In this document: positions 19,362 to 52,513 of the stretch, piece by piece
Layout of the letters: each line of letters opens with the position of its first letter
Position numbering within the stretch: position 1 is the stretch's first letter
Source of the DNA: Alphaproteobacteria bacterium
Lineage (GTDB): Bacteria > Pseudomonadota > Alphaproteobacteria > UBA6615
Length of the DNA: 64,000 bases
NCBI GenBank assembly: GCA_965222215.1
Contig: OZ244931.1
Location: 2,789,964 to 2,853,963 of the forward strand
Direction of reading: 5' to 3'
The notes under the pieces: generated by a model
What the model saw: only the letters and a program-made list of their open reading frames with translations
Told to the model about the DNA's origin: nothing
Database searches by the model: none
Made by a program: the position numbers and the translations under genes

Positions 19362-19377
19362 TGTGACGACAATCATA
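19362..19377 (+). promoter_or_regulatory. CRP-type box TGTGAcgacaaTCATA with a class II promoter geometry
   Basis: The box is TGTGA-N6-TCATA. Exactly 21 nt downstream lies TACGTT (19399..19404). The flank g.GGAACGG and the ...CCCTACGTT motif are shared with the box at 44863. Confidence 0.55.
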
Positions 19378-40906: not shown

Positions 40907-43900
40907 ATGAATCTGATCTCCAGCTCGATTCACCGGCCCATCGCGGTCATTGCCGTCGTGGTCATGGTCATCATGTTCGGCTGGGTCGCGTTGCAGCGAA
41001 TCCCTATCCAGCTCGCGCCGGATGTCCGCCAGCCGGTCATCATTGTCGACACGTCCTGGCCCGGCGCCTCCCCTCTTGAGGTCGAGCGGGAAATCGTCAA
41101 CCGCCAGGAAGAGGTGCTCAAGGGCATCGAAGGCGTGCGCAAGATTGAAAGCCGCGCACGGACCGGGCGCTCCGATATCACGCTTGAGTTCAGTCCCAGC
41201 CAGAACATGGACCGCGCATTGCTGCTGGTCGCCAATCGTCTGGACCGGGTGACGGGGTATCCCGAGGAAGCCGACGAGCCGACCCTGCGCACCTCGGGCA
41301 CCGACGACAATGCGATCGCCTGGTTCATCCTGACCCGCGCCGAAGGCAACGATCGCGACATGATCACCTACGGCGACTTCCTGGAGGACGTCGTCCAGGA
41401 GCGCATCGAACGGATCGCTGGAATTTCAGGCGTCAATATTTTCGGCGAAACCGAACGCGAGATGCGGATCGTCGTCGATCCCGAGCGTCTGGCCCAGTAC
41501 CGCATGACCGTCGAGGATGTCGTGACCCGGCTGCGCGCCGAGAACGCCTCGACCTCCGGCGGCGACGTCGACGAGGGCAAACGCAGCTACGTCGTGCGCA
41601 CCGATGGTGATTTCACGAATGTGGACCAGGTCTACGAGATTGTCCTGCGTTCGGATGCCGACCTCGGCGACGGCCGTATCGGCCGGATCACGGTGCGCGA
41701 TATCGCCGATGTCGAACTCGCCTACAAGAAGGCGCGGGCATTGCCGCACAAGTTCGACAGCCGTGCGATGGCATTCAACATGACCCGGGAACAGGGTGCC
41801 AACGTCCTGTCGGTCATGGACGCGGTGCATCGGGAGATCGCCGACCTGGCGGAAGGCCCGCTGCGCAGCGTGGGTCTGCTGGTGGAGAACGTTTACGACG
41901 AGACGCTCTACGTCAATTCCGCGATATCGCTCGTCCAGCAGAACATCGTCGTCGGCGGCATCCTCGCCGCGCTGATCCTCATGCTGTTTCTGCGCTCGTG
42001 GCGCCCCACGCTCGTGGTCTCTCTTGCGATTCCGGTCTCGGTCGTCGGTTCTTTCGTGGCGATGGCCGCCCTCGGGCGCTCACTCAACGTTATCAGTCTC
42101 GCCGGAATCGCCTTCGCCGTCGGCATGGTCGTCGACGCGGCGATCGTGGTGCTGGAAAACATCTACCGGCTGCGTCAGGAAGGCCTGTCCCGTTCGGAAG
42201 CGGCCTACAAGGGTGCATCGCAGGTCTGGCCCGCCGTCCTTGTCTCGTCCCTCACGACCGTGATGGTTTTCATCCCCATCCTGATCATGGAACTCGAGGC
42301 CGGCCAGCTTTTCCGCGATATCGCCGTCGCCATATCGGTCTCGGTCCTGCTGTCCCTGCTGGTATCCGTGACGGTCATTCCGGCACTGGCGAACCGGCTG
42401 CTTGTCGGCAGTACGGCCGAGGGCGGCAAACCCATGCGGCTTCCGGTCGTCGATGATTTCGCCCGCGGCTTTGTCGCTTTCTGGCAAAACTTCACGCGCC
42501 TGGTTGTGCGCTCGAAACCGCTCGCGCTGGGTGTCGTGGCCGCCATCACGCTTGCGTCCGCATTGTTCACGGTAAGTCTGGCGCCGAAGCTCGACTATCT
42601 GCCCACGGGTAACCGGAACTTCGTGTTCGGCTTCGTCAATGTGCCACCGGGCTACAATCTCGACGAGGTGAACACGATCACGGAGCGAATTGCCGAGCGT
42701 ACCCGGCCGCTCTGGGCCACCGAAACCGGCCCCGAATCGGAGCCGGGAGCGCCTCCCAAGTTCGAGCGCTTCATGCGGGTGCCGTTTTCCGGCCGGGCGT
42801 TCATTGGCGGGACGGCCACCGATCCGAACCGTGCAGCGGAACTCGGCCCGATTCTTGAGGAGGCCGCCGCGCAGGAACCGGGAACGCGGGCGTTTGCGCG
42901 TCAACCCTCGCTTTTCGGGCGTTCCGTCGGGAGCGGGCGGTCTATCGATTTCGACATACGCGGCTCCGACCTTCAGACGGTTTACGACGTCGCCGGGGAC
43001 GTGTTCCAACGCCTCCAGCAGGTGGTTCCCTTCAGCGAGGGGCATCGCACGCGGCCGATTCCAAGTCTCACCTTGTCGGCTCCCGAAGTGCGCGTCGCAC
43101 CGAACCGGGTTCGGCTCGCCGACAACGGACTTTCCGCGCGCTCCCTGGGACAGTCTGTGGACGCATTCAACGACGGCATTCGCGTCGCCGAAATCACGGT
43201 GGACGGCAAGCGCATCGATCTCACGCTGATGGGGCCGCAGGACATGGTGGGCCAGACCCAGGGAATCGGATCCCTGCCGGTTGTCACCCGCGACGGACGG
43301 ATCGTGCCGGTCGAAGGTCTCGCCGATGTGCGGATCACATCGGGTCCGACGGAAATCCGGCGCGCCGACAGGTCCCGTACCGTCACGCTCCAGATCACGC
43401 CGAACGCCCAGATGCCACTGCAGGAAGCTCTCGAAAAAATCGAGTCGGAAGTCGTCGAACCCATGGAGGCAGAAGGATTGCCCAGCGGGGTCACGTTCCA
43501 CCTGACGGGCACGGCCGACAAGCTGCTTGAGACCTGGAACGAGATGGTCATCGACCTGCTGCTGGCGATTGTGATCGTCTACCTGGTGATGGCCGTCCTG
43601 TTCGAGAGCTTCATCTACCCTTTGATCATCATCCTCACGGTCCCCGTCGCGGCGGCAGGCGGGATCGCCGGGCTGGCGATCCTCAACCTGGGGGTCAATC
43701 AGCCGCTCGACATGCTGACAATGCTTGGCTTCGTCATCCTGACCGGGATTGTGGTGAACAACGCCATCCTGCTGGTCCATCAGACCCTCTATCACATACG
43801 CGAAGACGGACTTTCGGCTGACGACGCCATCATGCGCGCGACCCAGAACCGGGTCCGGCCGATCTTCATGTCCACGCTGACATCGGTCTTCGGCATGCTG

Positions 43901-44080
43901 CCGCTGGTTGTGTTCCCGGGTGCCGGCTCGGAACTGTATCGGGGCCTCGGCTCCGTCGTGCTGGGCGGTTTGTCCCTGTCGGCCGTGCTCACCTTGGCGA
44001 TTGTGCCGCCTATGATGTCCATCACAGTCGGCTGGCGCGAACGCGGCGATAACACGCCACCCGCGGCCCCCGCCGAATAG
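40907..44080 (+). CDS. RND efflux permease (AcrB/AcrD/AcrF family)
   Basis: 1057 aa with 12-TM RND architecture. Begins MNLISSSIHRPIAVIAVVVM, with GIAFAVGMVVDAAIVVLENI and the C-terminal half GFVILTGIVVNNAILLV. Confidence 0.95.
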   Translation: MNLISSSIHRPIAVIAVVVMVIMFGWVALQRIPIQLAPDVRQPVIIVDTSWPGASPLEVEREIVNRQEEVLKGIEGVRKIESRARTGRSDITLEFSPSQNMDRALLLVANRLDRVTGYPEEADEPTLRTSGTDDNAIAWFILTRAEGNDRDMITYGDFLEDVVQERIERIAGISGVNIFGETEREMRIVVDPERLAQYRMTVEDVVTRLRAENASTSGGDVDEGKRSYVVRTDGDFTNVDQVYEIVLRSDADLGDGRIGRITVRDIADVELAYKKARALPHKFDSRAMAFNMTREQGANVLSVMDAVHREIADLAEGPLRSVGLLVENVYDETLYVNSAISLVQQNIVVGGILAALILMLFLRSWRPTLVVSLAIPVSVVGSFVAMAALGRSLNVISLAGIAFAVGMVVDAAIVVLENIYRLRQEGLSRSEAAYKGASQVWPAVLVSSLTTVMVFIPILIMELEAGQLFRDIAVAISVSVLLSLLVSVTVIPALANRLLVGSTAEGGKPMRLPVVDDFARGFVAFWQNFTRLVVRSKPLALGVVAAITLASALFTVSLAPKLDYLPTGNRNFVFGFVNVPPGYNLDEVNTITERIAERTRPLWATETGPESEPGAPPKFERFMRVPFSGRAFIGGTATDPNRAAELGPILEEAAAQEPGTRAFARQPSLFGRSVGSGRSIDFDIRGSDLQTVYDVAGDVFQRLQQVVPFSEGHRTRPIPSLTLSAPEVRVAPNRVRLADNGLSARSLGQSVDAFNDGIRVAEITVDGKRIDLTLMGPQDMVGQTQGIGSLPVVTRDGRIVPVEGLADVRITSGPTEIRRADRSRTVTLQITPNAQMPLQEALEKIESEVVEPMEAEGLPSGVTFHLTGTADKLLETWNEMVIDLLLAIVIVYLVMAVLFESFIYPLIIILTVPVAAAGGIAGLAILNLGVNQPLDMLTMLGFVILTGIVVNNAILLVHQTLYHIREDGLSADDAIMRATQNRVRPIFMSTLTSVFGMLPLVVFPGAGSELYRGLGSVVLGGLSLSAVLTLAIVPPMMSITVGWRERGDNTPPAAPAE

Positions 44081-44123: not shown

Positions 44124-44822
44124 ATGACCGGGTCCGACCACAGCCTTGCCGGCGTTCCGTTTCTCGAACCGCTCGACAATTCCGCGCGAAAATCGCTGGA
44201 ACAGCGCGCGCGCTGGATGCGCCACAAGCCGGGCGAGACGATCATCGACCGTGAGAGCGAATCGCGCGATGTCTATTTTGTCGTCGAAGGCAGGGTCCGG
44301 GTGGTCAACTTCTCCCTGTCCGGCCGCGAAATCAGCTTCGACGAGATCGATCCCGGCGGCGTCTTCGGCGAATTGGCCGCGCTGGACGGACAACCGCGTT
44401 CGGCCACCATCGTGGCGCTGGCGGACACGCTCGTGGCATCGGTCTCTCCGGACACGTTTGTGAACATGCTCCGCGATCATCCGGATATGGCCATCGGGCT
44501 GATGCAGGAGCTGGCGAAGATCGTTCGCGCCTCGACGGGGCGGATCATGGACCTGAGCACATTGGGCGCCCACAACAGGGTCCATTCGGAAATCCTGCGC
44601 GAAGCGCGCCTCAACGCGGACGACGAATCCAACGAGGCACGCATCACACCGATCCCGGTGCATGCGGATATCGCCGCGCGGGTCAGCACCACGCGCGAGA
44701 CCGTGGCACGCGTGTTCGGCGATCTGGCCAAGCAGGGCCTGGTGAAACGCGAGAAGGATGCGCTCGTCGTCCTTGATCTGGAACGCCTCGAAGATCTCGT
44801 CGACGAAGTTCGCGACTTCTAA
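44124..44822 (+). CDS. Crp/Fnr-family cyclic-nucleotide-binding transcriptional regulator (CRP-like)
   Basis: The cNMP pocket is FGELAALDGQPRSATIVA. The C-terminal HTH recognition helix is TTRETVARVFGDLAKQGLV. This keeps the R-E-x-x-x-R residues that read TGTGA in E. coli CRP (RETVGR). Confidence 0.9.
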   Translation: MTGSDHSLAGVPFLEPLDNSARKSLEQRARWMRHKPGETIIDRESESRDVYFVVEGRVRVVNFSLSGREISFDEIDPGGVFGELAALDGQPRSATIVALADTLVASVSPDTFVNMLRDHPDMAIGLMQELAKIVRASTGRIMDLSTLGAHNRVHSEILREARLNADDESNEARITPIPVHADIAARVSTTRETVARVFGDLAKQGLVKREKDALVVLDLERLEDLVDEVRDF

Positions 44823-44862
44823 ATTATTGAATTTGCTGGGAAACGAAAGTTTTTCGACCGCT

Positions 44863-44878
44863 TGTGACGCCCGTCACT
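44863..44878 (+). promoter_or_regulatory. CRP-type box TGTGAcgcccgTCACT with a class II promoter geometry
   Basis: It lies 41 nt after the crp-like stop. TACGTT sits exactly 21 nt downstream (44900..44905). The 19-mer TGTGACGCC(C/T)GTCACTGTG recurs at 50693. Confidence 0.65.
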
Positions 44879-44955
44879 GTGGAACGGAACCTTCGCCCCT
44901 ACGTTATGGGTGCGACGACGGGATGTCGTCCAGCACCGAGCGGAAGGGAGAACCC

Positions 44956-45051
44956 ATGTCACGGCAAACACGCATCAACCTGGCAGCACTGATTTTGGCG
45001 CTGCCCCTGGTCGTCGCGATGGTTGAAATGACACTCCCCTCAGGGCTCTAG
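44956..45051 (+). CDS. micro-ORF encoding a single-pass membrane peptide (31 aa; 42 aa if started at 44923)
   Basis: A strong GGAAGGGAG RBS lies 6 nt before the ATG. The peptide is MSRQTRINLAALILALPLVVAMVEMTLPSGL. It lies downstream of the CRP box and upstream of a terminator hairpin. Not in the track (<60 aa as a stand-alone ORF). Confidence 0.45.
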   Translation: MSRQTRINLAALILALPLVVAMVEMTLPSGL

Positions 45052-45102
45052 CTTCCCTCGGCGCACACTTCGCATTCATCCCAACCTCCTCCATGGACTT
45101 GC

Positions 45103-45136
45103 GGCCGGTCTCTCACGAGACCGGCCATTTTCTTTG
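45103..45136 (+). terminator. rho-independent terminator
   Basis: Stem GGCCGGTCTC, loop TCAC, stem GAGACCGGCC, followed by ATTTTCTTTG. The T-tract is present only on the + strand. Confidence 0.75.
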
Positions 45137-45146
45137 TCCAGAAAGG

Positions 45147-46667
45147 TCAGAATTCCCAGCGGCGGCTCACGCCGACGGCGAAGCGGTAGTTGTTGTAGGA
45201 GAAGTTCGTGATGTTCGAGAGTTGGCGGTAGGCCTCTGCGCTCAACGTAAACGTCAGGTCTTCGAGTACCCTCGGCACATCGTCGCCGATCGCGGACACC
45301 GGAATGCCGTAGGTCAGCCGCAAACGGCCGAACTTGTCGCTACGCGTGTCGGTGGCAACCGACGGGTCGTTCCGGTCGTACCGGTCATGTCCGATCGTCA
45401 GCGACGTCAGCAGGAAGTCCCCATCCTCGAAGAGCCAGGTGTGCGTGGCCGCAAGCTGGTCGCGGTCGAAAGAATTGAACGCGCGCGAGGCGATCGTGCG
45501 GCCCCGGGTAAAACTCGCGCGCAACCGCTGGGTCGTGTCGAGTACCTGGCTGAAACCCAGCTCGAACTGATAGCTGCGCCCGCTTCTCTGGGTGGCCGTC
45601 GTGTTGCCGGTGATGTTGTTGTAGTACTGGTACTTTGCCTGGGCTTTCCCGAAGACGCCAAAGGTGTTCGAGACATCGCGGTTCCAGTCCAGCGATGCAC
45701 CCTTGGCGACCAGGTACTTCTCACGCGACAGCAGCACGTTTTCGTAGAGGATACGGGGCGTGAAGGTGTCCGGCGCGAAGTCGAGTTCGAACCCGAAATC
45801 CGCGCTGATGGCCTGCAGGTCGAGATCGTCCTGCTGGATCTGCTCACCCTGGTAGTAGACCACTCCGCCGACCATCATGTGGCGCTTTTGCGCACCGAGA
45901 TCGTGCTCGAAGGACAATTGCGCCAGCCCGTTGATCGAGAGGTCGTCGATCCGCGCCGACGTCCCGGACGTGCGCGTCGGCAAACCGAATGCCAGCCGGG
46001 TCTCGGACTTCGGGGACGCGTTCCGGTTCCAGTCATACTGGCCCGAAAGGTTCACGGCGAAGACGAACTTCGTGACCTTGCGGCGATTCTGGATTTGTTC
46101 GAGATAGCGGTCGATCTGCGCGCGCAGGTCGTCCGGCATGTCCAGTTCGCGGACCGCCAGAAGCTCGCGCTCGGCTTCATCCAGGTTGTCGAGGCGGAAC
46201 AGCACAATGGCGAAAAGCACGCGCACGGTCGCCAGATCGGGGCGGATCAACAGGATCCGCTCCAGAGTCGCGCCCGCTCCGCGCACATTTCCTTCGCGAA
46301 TCTGAGTCAGCGCGTAGCGAAAATTCAGATCGATATTGTCGGGGTCGGCCAGGACCTGCTGATAGGTCACTGCGGGGCCGTCACCGAATGTATTCAGGTC
46401 GAGGGCGTCTTCGGCCGCACGGTCGATCTCTTCCGTGCGTTCGATTTCTTCCTCGACCTCGTCGCCACGCTCCTCGACGCCCGTCTGCTGGGCAAGCGCC
46501 GGCGACGCCAGAAATCCGGCGATCAGACAGGCCAACCCGAAACTGCCATACCGGACGCGCCAGCCGAAAGCCGGCGCGTCTCCTTGCGAAAGGAAAACCA
46601 GTGAATGCCCCCAAGATTGAACGGGAATAAAGCACGACGGATCGCGGCGGAGCAAGCAAAGGCGCAT
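45147..46667 (-). CDS. outer-membrane protein: N-terminal TPR region plus C-terminal beta-barrel (tentatively DUF560/Slam-like)
   Basis: Hydrophobic signal segment ends ...GLACLIAGFLASPALAQQ. A TPR-like helical region follows (LNFRYALTQIREGNVRGAGATLERILLIRPDLATVRVLFAIVLFRLDNLDEAEREL). About 310 aa of alternating beta pattern then start at FVFAVNLSGQYDWNRNASP and end SNITNFSYNNYRFAVGVSRRWEF, with a terminal aromatic. It sits 20 nt downstream of the cyclase gene. The exact start is uncertain. Confidence 0.7.
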   Translation of the reverse strand: MRLCLLRRDPSCFIPVQSWGHSLVFLSQGDAPAFGWRVRYGSFGLACLIAGFLASPALAQQTGVEERGDEVEEEIERTEEIDRAAEDALDLNTFGDGPAVTYQQVLADPDNIDLNFRYALTQIREGNVRGAGATLERILLIRPDLATVRVLFAIVLFRLDNLDEAERELLAVRELDMPDDLRAQIDRYLEQIQNRRKVTKFVFAVNLSGQYDWNRNASPKSETRLAFGLPTRTSGTSARIDDLSINGLAQLSFEHDLGAQKRHMMVGGVVYYQGEQIQQDDLDLQAISADFGFELDFAPDTFTPRILYENVLLSREKYLVAKGASLDWNRDVSNTFGVFGKAQAKYQYYNNITGNTTATQRSGRSYQFELGFSQVLDTTQRLRASFTRGRTIASRAFNSFDRDQLAATHTWLFEDGDFLLTSLTIGHDRYDRNDPSVATDTRSDKFGRLRLTYGIPVSAIGDDVPRVLEDLTFTLSAEAYRQLSNITNFSYNNYRFAVGVSRRWEF

Positions 46668-46687
46668 AGGCCTAAGCTACTGAACTC

Positions 46688-48940
46688 TCATTTCGTTTCA
46701 GCGACGTAGACGCCGTCCCAGCCCGGCGGCGGCGGGTCGAACGAATACTGCGAAATCCGCTCGGCATAGAGGTCGTAGAGTTCCTTGATCGCGTCCGGCA
46801 GGTCGAGGCACTCGTTGAGCGCCGCCTGCGCACCATCCCAGTCAGCCGACCTGTAGGCGGTCAGCATGCGTTCGTGAGCCTCGCTCAGGGCCACGAATTC
46901 CGGCTCCGCTGCTTTTTCCGCATCGCCCATCAGCGCGAAAATATGCACGGCCTCGCTCTTTCCCTTCACCGCAATCAGGTCGAGCTCCAGAAAGGCGAAC
47001 TCGTCCACGACCGCGGCGCGCGTCGTCTCTCCCACGACGATCAGCGCGCCGTAGTTCTTCGACTGCCCTTCCAGCCTGGCCGCGAGGTTCACGGCGTCGC
47101 CGAGCACGGAATAGTCGAAGCGCTGGTCGGACCCCATGTTGCCGACCACGCACTCACCCGAATTGAGCCCAACGCCGACGCCCACCATGAAGGCATCGGG
47201 ATCCTCCGCCTTGCGCTCTTCGTTGACCCGGTCCAGGGCGGCAATGACCGCGAGCCCGGCTTCGCAGGCATGCCGGGCATGGTGGGGATCGTCGAGCGGC
47301 GCGTTCCAGAACGCCATGATGCAATCGCCCATGTACTTGTCGATCGTACCGTTACGATCGAGGATTTCACCCGTCAGCGGCGTCAGAATGCGGTTGATGA
47401 GGGCCGTGAGGCCCTGCGGATCGTCACGGTGGGCCTCGGAAATCGCGGTGAAGCCGCGAATGTCGGAGAACAGCAGGGTCATCTCGCGGGTCTCACCGCC
47501 GAGCCGCAGGCGATCCGGTTCCTCGGCAAGCTGCTCGACAAGTGCGGGCGACAAATACTGGCCGAATGCCGAACGGATCTGCCGGCGCTGGTTCTCTGAA
47601 TTCAGGAAGTTGATCAGCGAACTGGACATATAGACCAGCAGCACCACGACCGCCGGATATATCGGGTCGATGAGGATGCGCGAATTGGTATAGGCGAACC
47701 AGCCGACGGCGATACCAATGGCGATGGCGACGATCGACACCAGCGCCCCGGCCGTCGCGCCGAGTTTCGGGAGCAGCAGGATCAGGAAGATGCCCAGCAG
47801 CGCGAAGGCCGAAAGCTCCGCGCCCAGGGTCCAGTCGGGCCGGGTCAGGAACGTATCGGTCAGCATCTGCTCGATCAGTTCGGCGTGCACCTCGACCCCG
47901 GGAATGATGGGATTCAGCGGCGTCGAGCGCAGGTCGAGCAGGCCCGGCGCGCTCGTCCCGATCAGCACGATCGCGCCTTCGAGCCTGTCGGCCTGGGTGA
48001 TCGGTTCGTCCGCGGACCACAACCGCCAGGCCGGCAGGTAACGCTCCGGTTTGTAGCCCGTGTAGTGCAGCCAGACATGGCCCTCGCCGTCCGTCACGAC
48101 CGGCACCTGGCCGACGCTGACGCTGGAGATCCCCGTCGCGGCACCCCCTTCACCGCTCGCGTCCGACATCTTGATCCGGTACGCCCGCGCGCCCTGCGCG
48201 ACGCGCAGCGCCTCCGCCCCGAGGGTCGGGTAGAGCGCGGGGAGCGCGAAGGGGTCCGTATAGTCGGGCTCGGTGCCGGGCGGCACATACTGGGTGAAGA
48301 TCGGCACCCGGCGGATCAGCCCGTCGATTTCCGAGGGAAAGTTGATGTTGCCGAGCCCCGCCGCCGCCTTGTCGAGGATCGGCAGGTTCGAAATCGCGGC
48401 CCGGTTGACCGGCAGGAACAGGTGCGGCGGCGTGCCCCCTATCGCGACGCCCGCCTTCGGCGCCGGCGGTCCTGTCGTGTTTTGCGATTGGGAGAAGGTG
48501 AAACCGGTGACGACCCGCCCGCGCGCGAACGCCTCGGCCAGCGCCTCGTCATGGTCGGGCAGCGCCTCGACATTGACCCGCAGGGCCTCGCCCACCGCGC
48601 CTTCCGGCCAGGCGGACAACACGTTCCGCGGCGACGTGCGGTCCGGCTCGGCGAACAGCACGTCGAACACGACCACGGCCGCGCCCTCCTCGTGGAGGCG
48701 GTCGACAAGGCTCGCGATCCGCGTTCGCGGCCACGGCCACTGCCCGATCTCGGCCAGGCTGGCATCGTCGATATCGAGAATACGTACCGGCAACTGCTCG
48801 AAATGGCGCGGCTCGATCCGCTGGTAGGTGTCGAACGTCCACCAGCGGACAAGCTGCACCGGCGTTGGGTCCTCGATCCGGACGAACAGCGCCAGAAGCA
48901 GGATAACGATCGGTATCAGGCGGGATTTCCATGCACGCAT
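46688..48940 (-). CDS. CHASE2-sensor class III adenylate cyclase
   Basis: An N-terminal TM helix is followed by a ~330-aa periplasmic CHASE2-like domain (ILDIDDASLAEIGQWPWPR, VVVFDVLFAEPD) and three TM helices. The cyclase domain reads MTLLFSDIRGFTAISE, DKYMGDCIMAFWNAP and RFDYSVLGDAVNLAARLE. An ~85-aa helical tail follows. Confidence 0.9.
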   Translation of the reverse strand: MRAWKSRLIPIVILLLALFVRIEDPTPVQLVRWWTFDTYQRIEPRHFEQLPVRILDIDDASLAEIGQWPWPRTRIASLVDRLHEEGAAVVVFDVLFAEPDRTSPRNVLSAWPEGAVGEALRVNVEALPDHDEALAEAFARGRVVTGFTFSQSQNTTGPPAPKAGVAIGGTPPHLFLPVNRAAISNLPILDKAAAGLGNINFPSEIDGLIRRVPIFTQYVPPGTEPDYTDPFALPALYPTLGAEALRVAQGARAYRIKMSDASGEGGAATGISSVSVGQVPVVTDGEGHVWLHYTGYKPERYLPAWRLWSADEPITQADRLEGAIVLIGTSAPGLLDLRSTPLNPIIPGVEVHAELIEQMLTDTFLTRPDWTLGAELSAFALLGIFLILLLPKLGATAGALVSIVAIAIGIAVGWFAYTNSRILIDPIYPAVVVLLVYMSSSLINFLNSENQRRQIRSAFGQYLSPALVEQLAEEPDRLRLGGETREMTLLFSDIRGFTAISEAHRDDPQGLTALINRILTPLTGEILDRNGTIDKYMGDCIMAFWNAPLDDPHHARHACEAGLAVIAALDRVNEERKAEDPDAFMVGVGVGLNSGECVVGNMGSDQRFDYSVLGDAVNLAARLEGQSKNYGALIVVGETTRAAVVDEFAFLELDLIAVKGKSEAVHIFALMGDAEKAAEPEFVALSEAHERMLTAYRSADWDGAQAALNECLDLPDAIKELYDLYAERISQYSFDPPPPGWDGVYVAETK

Positions 48941-49086
48941 GCCAGCAATCTATCTCATGCCCAGACGCCGACCCAAGAAATCTTCGACCCATTGAGAATC
49001 GTGGACAAGCCTTCCTCATCGCCCACCGGGCTCGTTACTCATGTGAGGTGTTGACGCAACCCGGACCGACGCCTAAGCCCTTGGGT

Positions 49087-50649
49087 ATGGTTAGTTATTC
49101 CTTAAAGCGATTCTCCGCCTTCCCGGTTGCGGTAGGCCTTCTCACGATGGCGTCCGGAACATCTCTTTACGCTCAGGGCAGCGAGCAGGCCGGTGTCGCC
49201 GGCGCCGTGCGCGGCGATGTCACCCTGGTGGCGGCGGTCGCGGCCCAGACCCGGGTCGTCGGCGAGAAGATGGGCAGCGGCGACAAGATATTCCTCGGCG
49301 ACGAAATCTCGACCGGCCCGAACTCGGGCATGCAGGTGATGCTGCTCGACGAGACGATATTCACCATCGGCCCCAACGCCGGTCTGGTGATCGACGAGTT
49401 CGTCTACGACCCGGCGACGAACGCCGGCCAGGTGACGGCATCGGTCGTGAAAGGCGCGTTCCGGTTCGTGTCCGGCAAGGTCGCCAAGGAAGAACCCAGC
49501 AAGATGAACGTGAAGACGCCGGTCGGCACCATCGGCATTCGCGGCACGTCGGCGGCCGGGGTGGTCACCCTGCCCGAGCCCGGGGATCCGAACGGCACGA
49601 TTTCCGGCACCTTCGTGCTTCTCGGGCCGGGCGCGGACAACAACGCGGGCGAACGCGCGGGCCGCATTCTGATCACCAACGGCGGAACGACGGTCGAGAT
49701 CACCCGCTCCGGCTTCGGCACGATCATTTCCAGCCCCGACGTCCCCCCGGGGACGCCGGTGCGCCTGGAGCCCGCGCAGGTCGCGGCGCTGACGGCCGCG
49801 CTCGGCACCGACGGCAGCGCGCGCCCGAACAACGACAACGATGGTCAGGGCGAGGGACAAAACGGCCAGAGCGGCGGGGGCAACCAGAACCAGGGGGGCG
49901 ACCAGCAAGCTGGTACCGGCCAGGGTTCAGGTTCATCAGGTGGCGGCACGACAGGAGCGGGGAGCAGCGGACTGGGGCAAGCAACAAATCTGGCCGGCCA
50001 GAATCTCGGGGAAGGCGTCACCAATGCCAACCTGCTCGGACAGATCGCCGGCACACAGAGTAGTGCGAATGACGAGACGTTTGAGGCGGCCGAAGACAGC
50101 GGTACGACATCCAACGTCAACACAGCGGTCGCCACCTTTGACCAGTTGCGGTCGGTGACAACCGGCACCGCGACGTTCAATTTCGGCACAATCCCGCTGC
50201 TGTACGCAGGCGGGGCGCACACGGACAGCGGCGGCAGCTTCGACGCCCAGGCGTTCATCGACTTCGGCGCGCAAACGCTCGACCTGCAGATTGCCAACAT
50301 CCAGTATGAGTTCGATCAGGACGGCAGCGGAAGCAACGCTTCCCTGATCGGCGCCGGCGGCCCACAGATGTTTGTGTTCACGCCGGACGGGGACGACCCG
50401 TTCGACAACACGACCTACCAAAACGACAACGGATTCGTTTCCGGGACCTGGGACTCCCAGGTCGACACGGCCAACTTCTCGACCCCGCCGACAGACGGGT
50501 CGCACGCCGTCATCTCTGCGTCGATTCTCAACGACATTGAAAATAACGTTGTAGCGTCTCAGGGCGTGGTCAGCATGACGATCAGCGACGCCAACAGCGA
50601 CACCGTGATCGTCGGCGGCGGCGTGGCGGCTGCCACAGCAGCGGACTAA
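49087..50649 (+). CDS. secreted FecR-domain protein, paralog 1 (FecR-like domain + Gly/Asn/Gln linker + C-terminal beta-rich domain)
   Basis: Signal peptide is MVSYSLKRFSAFPVAVGLLTMASGTSLYA-QG. The FecR-like core reads VRGDVTLV...GDKIFLGDEISTGPNSGMQVMLLDETIFTIGPNAGLVIDEFVY...VKGAFRFVSGKV...VKTPVGTIGIRGTS. I chose the ATG at 49087; the track start is 48931. Confidence 0.8.
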   Translation: MVSYSLKRFSAFPVAVGLLTMASGTSLYAQGSEQAGVAGAVRGDVTLVAAVAAQTRVVGEKMGSGDKIFLGDEISTGPNSGMQVMLLDETIFTIGPNAGLVIDEFVYDPATNAGQVTASVVKGAFRFVSGKVAKEEPSKMNVKTPVGTIGIRGTSAAGVVTLPEPGDPNGTISGTFVLLGPGADNNAGERAGRILITNGGTTVEITRSGFGTIISSPDVPPGTPVRLEPAQVAALTAALGTDGSARPNNDNDGQGEGQNGQSGGGNQNQGGDQQAGTGQGSGSSGGGTTGAGSSGLGQATNLAGQNLGEGVTNANLLGQIAGTQSSANDETFEAAEDSGTTSNVNTAVATFDQLRSVTTGTATFNFGTIPLLYAGGAHTDSGGSFDAQAFIDFGAQTLDLQIANIQYEFDQDGSGSNASLIGAGGPQMFVFTPDGDDPFDNTTYQNDNGFVSGTWDSQVDTANFSTPPTDGSHAVISASILNDIENNVVASQGVVSMTISDANSDTVIVGGGVAAATAAD

Positions 50650-50692
50650 CGCAAACCGCGGTTTTCCAGTCTTTCCAACAAAAACTTCGCCA

Positions 50693-50708
50693 TGTGACGC
50701 CTGTCACT
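50693..50708 (+). promoter_or_regulatory. CRP-type box TGTGAcgcctgTCACT with a class II promoter geometry
   Basis: It matches the 44863 box at 18 of 19 positions of the 19-mer. TATTTT sits exactly 21 nt downstream (50730..50735). It lies between the two FecR-domain paralogs. Confidence 0.65.
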
Positions 50709-50760
50709 GTGCGATCCGCTGCGCGTGCCTATTTTGAGGCTGCAACAATGGAGACGCACG

Positions 50761-50889
50761 ATGACCTTTCAGGCACCTCACACGTCCGCACGTAATATTC
50801 GATACAGTTTCCTCGCCGTGACCGGTCTCACTGCGGGGGCAACGGCGGGCCTGCTTGGCACGTTGCTGTTGGCTGTGGCGGCCCTGTAG
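50761..50889 (+). CDS. micro-ORF encoding a single-pass membrane peptide (42 aa)
   Basis: A GGAGAC RBS lies 6 nt before the ATG. The peptide is MTFQAPHTSARNIRYSFLAVTGLTAGATAGLLGTLLLAVAAL. It is about 19 nt downstream of the predicted CRP-dependent TSS and 43 nt upstream of paralog 2. Confidence 0.4.
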   Translation: MTFQAPHTSARNIRYSFLAVTGLTAGATAGLLGTLLLAVAAL

Positions 50890-50932
50890 ACGCCCGCGCG
50901 TTTTCAGTCACCGCCTGCTTCGAAGGTCCAAC

Positions 50933-52513
50933 ATGCCCCGGATAAATCCCGCAAAAACCGCGCTCATTCTGTGCAGCCTAATGACCGTGCCCGCGGGCGC
51001 CCTTGCGCAAGATGGCGGCGAGCTTGCGGGCGTCGCGGCCGCCGTGCGCGGCGATGTCACGCTGGTGGCCGCCCTGCCCGCAACCGGCGGCCGCGTAGTC
51101 GGTAAGAATCTCGGCAGCGGCGACAGGATTTTCCTTGGCGACGAGATCGAAACCGGCCCGGAATCGGGCATGCAGATCATGCTGCTCGACGAGACCATAT
51201 TTACCATCGGGCCGAGCTCCGGATTGATTATCGACGAATTCGTCTACGACCCCGCCACCAGCGCCGGCAAGGTCACCGCCTCCGTGGTCAAGGGCGCGTT
51301 CCGGTTCGTCTCGGGACGCGTGGCGAAGGAAGAGCCGAGCAATATGAACGTGCGCACGCCAGTCGGCACCATCGGCATACGCGGCACGTCCGCGGCCGGC
51401 GTCATCTCGCCCGCCGACCCAAACGATCCCGCCAGCCCGCTGACCGGCACTTTCGTTCTGCTGGGGCCCGGCGTGGACAACAATGCCGGCGAACGCGCGG
51501 GGCGTATTCTCGTCACCAACGGCGGGACAACGGTCGAAATCACCCGCTCCGGCTTCGGCACGGTGATCGCCAGCCCGATACTGCCCCCCGGGACTCCGGT
51601 TCGCCTCGAACCCGCGCAGGTCGCCGGCCTGACGGCCGCACTCGGCACGGATGGCGGTGCGCGTCCGCAGCAGGGGGGTGACAATACCCAGGGTTCGGAC
51701 AGTCCGGATGGCGGCGGCTCCGGAGGTTCCCGGAACGATAGCGGCGACGACAATCAGAATCAGGACAATCGAGGCCCGGGCGGAGAACAGGCAAACTCTG
51801 GCACCGCGCCCGGTCCGAACCAACAAGGCGCGCCAGCCGGAAGGCCCTCGGAGCGCATCGCGGGTGTCGACGCAGGCCAGGTCGCCGCGCTCACCGGACA
51901 GAATCTTGGCTCCGGGGCGACAGATGCCCGGTTCCTCGGTCGGGTCGGCACCGCGCAAAACGAGGCGAACCAGCAAGTCCTGGAGGCAGCCGAAGATGCA
52001 GGTATCGCGAGCACCGCCGTGGCCACCGCGATCAGCACGTTCGACCAGCTCCGGCTAATCCAGACCGGTACTGCAACATTCGATATGGGCAATATCTCGC
52101 TCAACTTCCTGAGCGGATCGCACACCAACAGCGGCGGGTCCTATAACGCCAACGCCGTGATCGACTTCGGCGCGCAGACTATCGATCTGAACATTTCAAG
52201 CGTGACCTACTTCTTCAACGGTGGGAACGCCCAGAGTTTTGCTTTCGACCCCGACGCGAACACCGGCGGAGGCGCGCTGGACTCCACCTATGCGAATGAT
52301 TCGGGTTTCGTCGCCGAAACCTGGACGACCAACAACAACGCGGCGAATTTCACGACCGCGCCGACCGACGGCGCATCGGTCCAGATTTCGGCGGCAATCC
52401 TCAATGATGTGGATGCCGGCGTGATCGCCGCGCGCGGTTTCGTGACCATGCGAATCCAGGAAAACGGTGGCGATACAGTGATCGGCGGGTCCGGTGTGGC
52501 CGAGCGCCAGTAA
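50933..52513 (+). CDS. secreted FecR-domain protein, paralog 2
   Basis: Signal peptide is MPRINPAKTALILCSLMTVPAGALA-QD. Its three-part architecture and FecR-like core are near-identical to paralog 1. I chose the ATG at 50933; the track start is 50855. Confidence 0.8.
   Translation: MPRINPAKTALILCSLMTVPAGALAQDGGELAGVAAAVRGDVTLVAALPATGGRVVGKNLGSGDRIFLGDEIETGPESGMQIMLLDETIFTIGPSSGLIIDEFVYDPATSAGKVTASVVKGAFRFVSGRVAKEEPSNMNVRTPVGTIGIRGTSAAGVISPADPNDPASPLTGTFVLLGPGVDNNAGERAGRILVTNGGTTVEITRSGFGTVIASPILPPGTPVRLEPAQVAGLTAALGTDGGARPQQGGDNTQGSDSPDGGGSGGSRNDSGDDNQNQDNRGPGGEQANSGTAPGPNQQGAPAGRPSERIAGVDAGQVAALTGQNLGSGATDARFLGRVGTAQNEANQQVLEAAEDAGIASTAVATAISTFDQLRLIQTGTATFDMGNISLNFLSGSHTNSGGSYNANAVIDFGAQTIDLNISSVTYFFNGGNAQSFAFDPDANTGGGALDSTYANDSGFVAETWTTNNNAANFTTAPTDGASVQISAAILNDVDAGVIAARGFVTMRIQENGGDTVIGGSGVAERQ

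Follow-up and report, generated by a model that had tools for sequence, protein, structure and literature searches.

A conserved Crp-type palindrome with class II spacing heads a membrane micro-ORF and a FecR-domain gene beside a CHASE2 nucleotide cyclase in an alphaproteobacterium

The DNA analyzed here, referred to as the window, is a stretch of 64,000 nucleotides. On its plus strand, an AcrB-type pump gene (40907-44080, assigned by Pfam and synteny) lies upstream of crp, which encodes a Crp-family regulator of 232 residues (44124-44822, plus strand; Pfam cNMP_binding, 7e-21, and HTH_Crp_2, 3e-12). This is followed by a palindrome (box 1) and a micro-ORF. Convergent with these plus-strand elements are two genes on the minus strand, namely a CHASE2-sensor class III nucleotide cyclase (46688-48940; Pfam CHASE2, 3e-57, and Guanylate_cyc, 2.9e-21) and, downstream of it on the same strand, a TPR and beta-barrel outer-membrane protein that is Slam/DUF560-like (45147-46667). 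A 503-residue ORF on the plus strand (45093-46604) was rejected as a shadow of the latter gene, as it is the minus-strand frame that is conserved (62-78% versus 35-53% identity). Beyond the cyclase, two genes for FecR-domain proteins follow on the plus strand. Paralog 1 (49087-50649, 520 residues) lies between the cyclase and a second palindrome, box 2, while paralog 2 (50933-52513, 526 residues, with a signal peptide; Pfam FecR, E = 3.4e-8) lies past it. Gene order continues with an HpcH aldolase and an MFS transporter, again according to Pfam and synteny.

Box 2, the subject of this study, is the Crp-type palindrome TGTGACGCCTGTCACT (50693-50708, plus strand), a 16-mer that matches 9 of the 10 consensus positions of TGTGA-N6-TCACA and begins 43 nt past the stop codon of paralog 1. 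Its half-sites, TGTGA (50693-50697) and TCACT (50704-50708), enclose the spacer cgcctg, and the region as a whole reads ccaTGTGACGCCTGTCACTgtgcgatccgctgcgcgtgccTATTTTgaggctgcaacaatGGAGACgcacgATG. Exactly 21 nt past the box (50709-50729) lies the -10-like hexamer TATTTT (50730-50735, plus strand). When this hexamer is set at -12 to -7, the box is centered at -41.5 and transcription is predicted to start near 50742. A center at -41.5 is the geometry of class II CRP/CAP promoters and the classic activating position. A promoter scan found no -35 match and no sigma-70 consensus -35/-10 pair, either at box 2 or upstream of paralog 1; for box 2, this is as expected of class II promoters. It should be noted that the -10 hexamers are weak matches and that their fixed position is their main definition. 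Further downstream on the plus strand are a Shine-Dalgarno-like GGAGAC (50750-50755), placed 5 nt ahead of the next start codon, a 42-codon ORF (sORF2, 50761-50889) and the ATG of paralog 2 at 50933. The initial annotation had listed the box, the 21-nt gap, TATTTT, the ribosome-binding site and both start codons, and every one of these positions held on re-reading. It had also called box 2 a twin of box 1 with identical spacing, which agrees with the 21-nt gap found in both and with the single spacer base by which the two boxes differ.

Box 1, TGTGACGCCCGTCACT (44863-44878, plus strand), is found 40 nt past crp and is followed, after 21 nt, by TACGTT (44900-44905). This architecture is kept behind crp in nearly all members of the family, even where the identity of the Crp orthologue falls to 57%. 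Behind box 1 is the conserved micro-ORF 1 (sORF1, 44956-45051), encoding a 31-residue membrane peptide, MSRQTRINLAALILALPLVVAMVEMTLPSGL. Past sORF1, there is a conserved stretch, AACCUCCUCC, and then a strong terminator (45103-45126). An Rfam match to mmgR/suhB at this place, the sole hit in a scan of 44700-51100, remains sub-threshold (24.5 bits, as compared to a gathering score of 41). Positions 44956-45141 may encode a dual-function small RNA. Another site, TATGATGTCCATCACA (44011-44026), falls within the 3' end of the acrB-like gene, 113 nt ahead of the start codon of crp. Three relatives (G007, G010 and G005) share this site, which may be autoregulatory or may be kept merely as coding sequence.

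In the regulator, the cNMP phosphate-binding cassette (FGEL...PRSAT) is intact, and its recognition helix, TTRETVAR, shows the R-E-x-x-x-R pattern with which CAP recognizes TGTGA. Its best relatives in the PDB are GlxR (79.8 bits), M. tuberculosis Crp (74 bits) and S. meliloti Clr (7pza, 65.6 bits), with E. coli CAP also among them, and all four are cAMP receptors. No second full Crp-type transcription factor was found in the genome by phmmer. The product of 44124-44822 is thus presumed to be the protein that binds boxes 1 and 2, and box 2 very likely represents a genuine binding site of this cyclic-nucleotide regulator encoded 6 kb away. That the right half of box 2 is always TCACT, rather than TCACA, may point to a specificity somewhat unlike that of CAP.

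The statistics of the motif were considered in both the window and the genome. Allowing at most one mismatch, TGTGA-N6-TCACA occurs four times in the window, as compared to 0.70 expected, and none of 100 shuffles reached this number. For the composite motif (the box, 21 nt and TAnnTn), a search of the 3.9-Mb genome, with 64% G+C, returned four occurrences, two of which are boxes 1 and 2, while 12 third-order Markov simulations gave a mean of 0.08. Of the 50 genome sites with at most one mismatch, 20 are outside ORFs. With a non-ORF share of sequence of 18.5%, as defined by a crude ORF set, this corresponds to a binomial P of 3e-4. Further sites of the same geometry were found ahead of envelope-protein genes, and the predicted regulon looks small and envelope-directed, not catabolic.

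Several of these sites deserve mention in their own right. In the window, TGTGACGACAATCATA (19362-19377), followed after 21 nt by TACGTT, marks a candidate member of the Crp regulon; the ORF behind it encodes 181 residues and is lipoprotein-like, with a glycine-zipper region. Other sites with class II geometry are found on genome sequence C1 at 970602-970617 (minus strand), 3062725 (plus), 2650798 (plus) and 515042-515057 (minus). One of them, a perfect palindrome, is paired with TACATT; past it come a CCUCCC-rich stretch and a strong hairpin, resembling a small RNA, and then a DsbA-like gene. In another, a box with TACCTA stands ahead of an ORF of about 80 residues, counted from an internal ATG, that starts with MRTNIRILAALLTVWVAVIVMM and resembles sORF1. 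The remaining two lie upstream of a multihaem-cytochrome-like gene and of a Sel1-repeat gene.

The locus is syntenic across relatives, and the box 2 unit is kept in eight genomes of three genera (G000 and G008; G054, G059, G016, G056 and G055, which form genus g7; and G015). In all eight, the order is box, 21 nt, TAnnTn, micro-ORF and FecR-domain gene, beside the CHASE2 cyclase. The half-sites TGTGA and GTCACT are invariant and the length of the 21-nt spacer is fixed, while the sequence of the spacer and the flanks drift. The hexamers found at 21 nt are TATTTT, TAGATT, TAGGTT (four times), TAGTTT and TATGTC. The distance from the box to the FecR ATG is 240 nt in the window and in G008, G054, G059, G016 and G055, 239 nt in G056 and 197 nt in G015.

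These data bear on the reading in which the twin boxes have no regulatory role and are relics of a duplication or chance palindromes, or in which box 2 is the hairpin of a terminator for paralog 1. The two boxes are indeed near-identical over 19 nt, and a weak hairpin with a T-rich tail was flagged at 50708-50735. However, boxes 1 and 2 have flanks with no relation to each other, both are kept from genus to genus amid diverged surroundings, and chance would have provided 0.08 rather than four composite motifs. As for a terminator, the palindrome offers a 5-bp stem without a T run directly after it, and where only one FecR gene is present the box falls between divergent genes, a place that calls for no terminator; the palindrome was rejected as a terminator on both these grounds. 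Such a reading is largely refuted by the conservation data, and we consider it extremely improbable.

It can also be asked whether GTGAC-N4-GTCAC is read by a different transcription factor, such that its nearness to crp is a coincidence. The invariant terminal T of TCACT departs from the CAP consensus, and the binding of Crp to box 2 is deduced from sequence. On the other hand, nearly all crp-bearing genomes of the family have a copy of the motif immediately behind that gene, no genome with box 2 lacks a Crp orthologue, the recognition helix is of the kind expected for this class of motif, and the motif fits the experimentally derived core motif of Clr. A reading by another factor is, accordingly, very improbable.

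The arrangement of boxes is not identical in all genera. The g7 genomes and G015 have a second Crp box, which is oriented toward the cyclase and separated by 21 nt from a hexamer of the CAnnTT type, namely CACTTT, CACTCT, CATGTT or CAACAT (loci L043-L048, belonging to G054, G059, G016, G056, G055 and G015; for example, L045:3760-4041). Behind this box and before the cyclase ATG is a conserved micro-ORF for a single-pass membrane peptide of about 50 residues, such as MTRRPAHMRHLASNGIFGNYASRTVLRMYLRWGAASFLALGVISFASVAL. In genus g7, the boxes facing the cyclase and the FecR gene overlap, with an offset of 15 bp. Direct control of the cyclase operon by Crp is thus plausible in these sister genera. 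Neither the cyclase-facing box nor its micro-ORF is present in G000 and G008, the window's genus, so that any feedback in the window genome would have to go through sORF2 and paralog 2. At a greater distance, genes for a CHASE2 cyclase, a FecR-domain protein and a TPR protein form a single operon in, among others, Elusimicrobia, Rhodospirillaceae and Hwanghaeella. The distant FecR/CHASE2 loci that were scanned (Elusimicrobia, SAR116, Hwanghaeella, Dongia and others) showed neither Crp boxes nor an adjacent crp, and the Crp box is thus specific to the window's family.

Two rearranged loci were also seen among relatives. In G007 (L031:10318-11460), the insertion of an IS3-family transposase (orfA/orfB) has destroyed the 5' half of the cyclase on one side and the first FecR copy, likewise 5'-truncated, on the other, and has removed the box region. 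In G017 (L040), a deletion joins a remnant of crp (residues 4-110) to a remnant of the FecR gene (from about residue 146), and the cyclase, the TPR/barrel gene and both boxes are gone.

Most relatives have only one FecR gene, and the box is located between this gene and the divergently oriented cyclase gene. A tree built from the N-terminal domains groups paralog 2 with the single-copy gene of G008 (support 86/81) and leaves paralog 1 outside this pair. Moreover, the sequence past the stop codon of paralog 1 (cgcaaacc...ttttcca) continues the right part of the intergenic region of G008, which places paralog 1 between the cyclase promoter region and the ancestral box. Paralog 2 is the reconstructed ancestral copy of the locus and paralog 1 a later extra copy; the unit of box, sORF and FecR gene is likewise the ancestral arrangement in this reconstruction. 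A third FecR-domain paralog (C1:1529151-1530338, minus strand; L036), 57% identical to paralog 2 over residues 10-434, was found elsewhere in the genome, and 18 kb scanned there contained no Crp box with at most one mismatch.

According to the initial annotation, paralog 1 has no complete box upstream, only an isolated TGTGA at 49042, and the two paralogs therefore appear to be differentially wired. The half-site was seen again, and the 146-nt spacer between the cyclase and paralog 1 contained no box even when three mismatches were allowed. The differential wiring is therefore borne out at the level of sequence, with paralog 2 behind a conserved box and paralog 1 boxless. Nonetheless, since no terminator was found between paralog 1 and box 2, paralog 2 may also be expressed by read-through from paralog 1, which would blur this difference.

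The same facts give room to a reading in which the regulator bound at box 2 represses, or is only a roadblock to read-through from paralog 1, and in which TAnnTn is not its promoter. The palindrome begins 43 nt past the paralog 1 stop codon with no terminator between them, the transcription start at box 2 is a predicted one, and Crp-family proteins can repress. Yet genomes with a single FecR gene have no co-oriented gene upstream and still keep the box and the exact 21 nt to a hexamer with A2 and T6. In addition, -41.5 is the classic position for activation, and activation is what is known of the homologous case in S. meliloti. We therefore take repression or roadblocking to be improbable.

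The gene directly behind box 2, sORF2 (ATG 50761 to TAG 50889, plus strand), encodes a single-pass membrane peptide of 42 residues, MTFQAPHTSARNIRYSFLAVTGLTAGATAGLLGTLLLAVAAL, and is called as a gene in the source genome. Its position holds a 129-nt ORF in seven genomes and a shorter ORF in G015, and GGAG is kept at the position of the ribosome-binding site in G008, G054, G059, G056 and G015. The peptides have in common a basic N-terminus and a Gly/Ala-rich transmembrane helix (best 19-residue hydrophobic window of sORF2, KD 1.82). Pairwise differences by codon position, 17/9/27 (G000 versus G008), 6/2/10 and 6/3/13, show a third-position bias. A word-based search of 5.8 billion protein clusters for homologues of sORF2 returned the window's own protein only, and neither sORF1 nor sORF2 has a match in Pfam or NCBIfam.

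In the initial annotation, the 42-codon ORF was taken for a leader peptide, and this part of the description could not be upheld. Rfam gave no match for the box 2 leader (scan of 44700-51100, E up to 1), no attenuator structure was found, and no convincing terminator lies between sORF2 and paralog 2. Leader-peptide attenuation was rejected, as no alternative terminator/antiterminator structure was found and the peptide sequence itself is conserved, namely as a transmembrane helix. As no attenuator-like structure follows, we read sORF2 as the gene for a conserved small membrane protein, presumably co-transcribed with paralog 2, the latter being the predicted main protein-coding target of box 2.

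When these results are combined, box 2 is best explained as the operator of a class II activator-dependent promoter for sORF2 and paralog 2, a reading to which we assign a probability of about 0.8. A dimeric Crp-family protein with bound cyclic nucleotide would bind TGTGAC-N4-GTCACT, centered at about -41.5, take the place of the missing -35 element and recruit RNA polymerase to TATTTT. Transcription would start near 50742 and yield one mRNA for the 42-residue sORF2 peptide and the secreted FecR-domain paralog 2. The nucleotide would probably be cAMP from the neighboring CHASE2 cyclase; either cAMP or cGMP would fit, and Clr responds to both. As to the product of the cyclase, its specificity residues are Lys in TIDKYMGD and Ser in RFDYSVLGD, as judged by alignment to CyaB (3r5g) and Cya2 (2w01). 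The second of these positions is Thr in P. aeruginosa CyaB and Gly in the guanylate cyclase Cya2. Since Lys and Ser resemble the Lys and Thr of CyaB-type adenylate cyclases, the enzyme is probably an adenylate cyclase.

Most likely, the induced products would act back on signal perception by the cyclase and so form a feedback loop. We propose this because FecR, TPR/beta-barrel and CHASE2 cyclase genes travel together in many bacteria. Structure prediction offers some hints as to how the envelope proteins may be related. The AF2 model of the TPR/barrel protein shows a TPR part and a 14-stranded OmpG-like barrel (pLDDT 73; TM 0.70 to OmpG). Among its domain matches, TPR_19 reached 5e-7, while TPR_Slam, at 0.005, was sub-threshold. 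Pfam SlipAM is matched by three of 11 family members (best E = 1.3e-4), and the window protein is not one of them; TPR_Slam, too, is touched by some members of the family. For full-length paralog 2, the AF2 model is poor (pLDDT 48) and the C-terminal domain alone is usable (pLDDT 70-85; encoded at 52034-52513). The best Foldseek matches of this domain are the C-domain of NHBA, fHbp, hemophilin and the C-lobe of TbpB, although none scores well (E from 2e-3 to 1e-2, and a TM to target that does not exceed 0.42). These four proteins are known Slam/type XI cargo. Searches of PDB sequences with paralog 2 and with the TPR/barrel protein gave nothing significant. The FecR proteins may be cargo of the Slam-like outer-membrane protein, in a type XI secretion pair tied to the cyclase.

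Each of the family's Crp boxes heads a membrane micro-ORF, with sORF1 after crp, sORF2 before the FecR gene and, in the sister genera, a third before the cyclase. One can imagine that the sORF peptides and the FecR protein together serve as an envelope feedback device, in which sORF2 modulates the CHASE2 cyclase within the inner membrane, much as MgrB does with PhoQ, and paralog 2, with its cargo-like C-terminal barrel, is a surface co-sensor exported by the Slam-like protein that is encoded together with the cyclase. We regard this as a speculative and rather doubtful proposal. If true, it would link type XI secretion to cAMP signaling, and the duplication of the FecR gene would set apart one constitutive and one cAMP-induced copy. 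In any case, the paralog pair can serve as a natural experiment on how regulation diverges once a gene has been duplicated.

The closest known system is the Clr locus of S. meliloti (Tian 2012; Zou 2017, PMC5498481; Krol 2016; Werel 2023, PMC10127613). There, clr, cyaD1 (encoding a CHASE2 cyclase), smc02177 (encoding a FecR-domain protein) and smc02178 are neighbors (PMC5498481). The product of smc02177 is a periplasmic FecR-domain protein, and Clr with cAMP activates its gene through a palindromic Clr box (PMC5498481; PMC10127613). Many Clr targets are small proteins (PMC10127613), and NsrA, an outer-membrane barrel protein, is needed for signal perception in S. meliloti (PMC7529298). Both loci have a crp-like gene, a CHASE2 cyclase gene and a FecR gene with a box for the regulator side by side. 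In terms of the operator, box 2, GTGACGCCTGTCAC, fits all six fixed positions of the Clr core motif GTNNCNNNNGNNAC (PMC10127613) but not the extended consensus HGTYHCNNNNGRWACA, from which it departs at position 4 (G, not Y), positions 12-13 (T and C, not R and W) and position 16 (T, not A); it is a CAP-type TGTGA-N6-TCAC site. By score, Clr (65.6 bits) is not a nearer relative of the window regulator than GlxR (79.8 bits). Unlike S. meliloti, the window has a conserved micro-ORF ahead of its FecR gene, has this gene in duplicate with one copy alone behind a box, and comes from an uncultured-type, non-rhizobial alphaproteobacterium.

When compared to the class II CAP promoters of E. coli (such as galP1 and CC(-41.5)), box 2 shares the 16-bp TGTGA-N6-TCAC site with its center 29.5 bp upstream of the first -10 base, the lack of a usable -35 element and, in the regulator, the R-E-x-x-x-R helix and the FGE...RS(A/T) cassette. 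The window differs in its G+C-rich host, its weak TAnnTn -10 element, its promoter-proximal half, which is invariably TCACT, and its predicted regulon, which does not appear catabolic. Clusters of genes for a CHASE2 cyclase, a FecR-domain protein and a TPR protein have been noted in Campylobacterota (PMC9239204). The same three families are found here, whereas the predicted Crp-controlled divergent promoters are specific to the window's family. MgrB/PhoQ offers a further likeness, in that a single-pass peptide of about 40-50 residues is encoded first behind the activator site of its pathway, beside the gene of a membrane sensor; the likeness is no more than an analogy, the sequences being unrelated, and contact between sORF2 and the cyclase is hypothetical.

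The predicted promoter, being well defined and easily mutated, offers a way to probe what FecR-domain partners and small membrane peptides do for CHASE2 sensors. The window would extend the logic of Clr, CyaD1 and SMc02177, in which cAMP from a CHASE2 cyclase acts through a Crp-like regulator on an adjacent gene for a FecR envelope protein, to outside the rhizobia, with an operator that is cleaner and CAP-like and a class II geometry that is strictly conserved. The circuit is a further example of the S. meliloti kind rather than a new type of system, and what it adds to the Clr circuit are the micro-ORFs and the rewired FecR duplicate.
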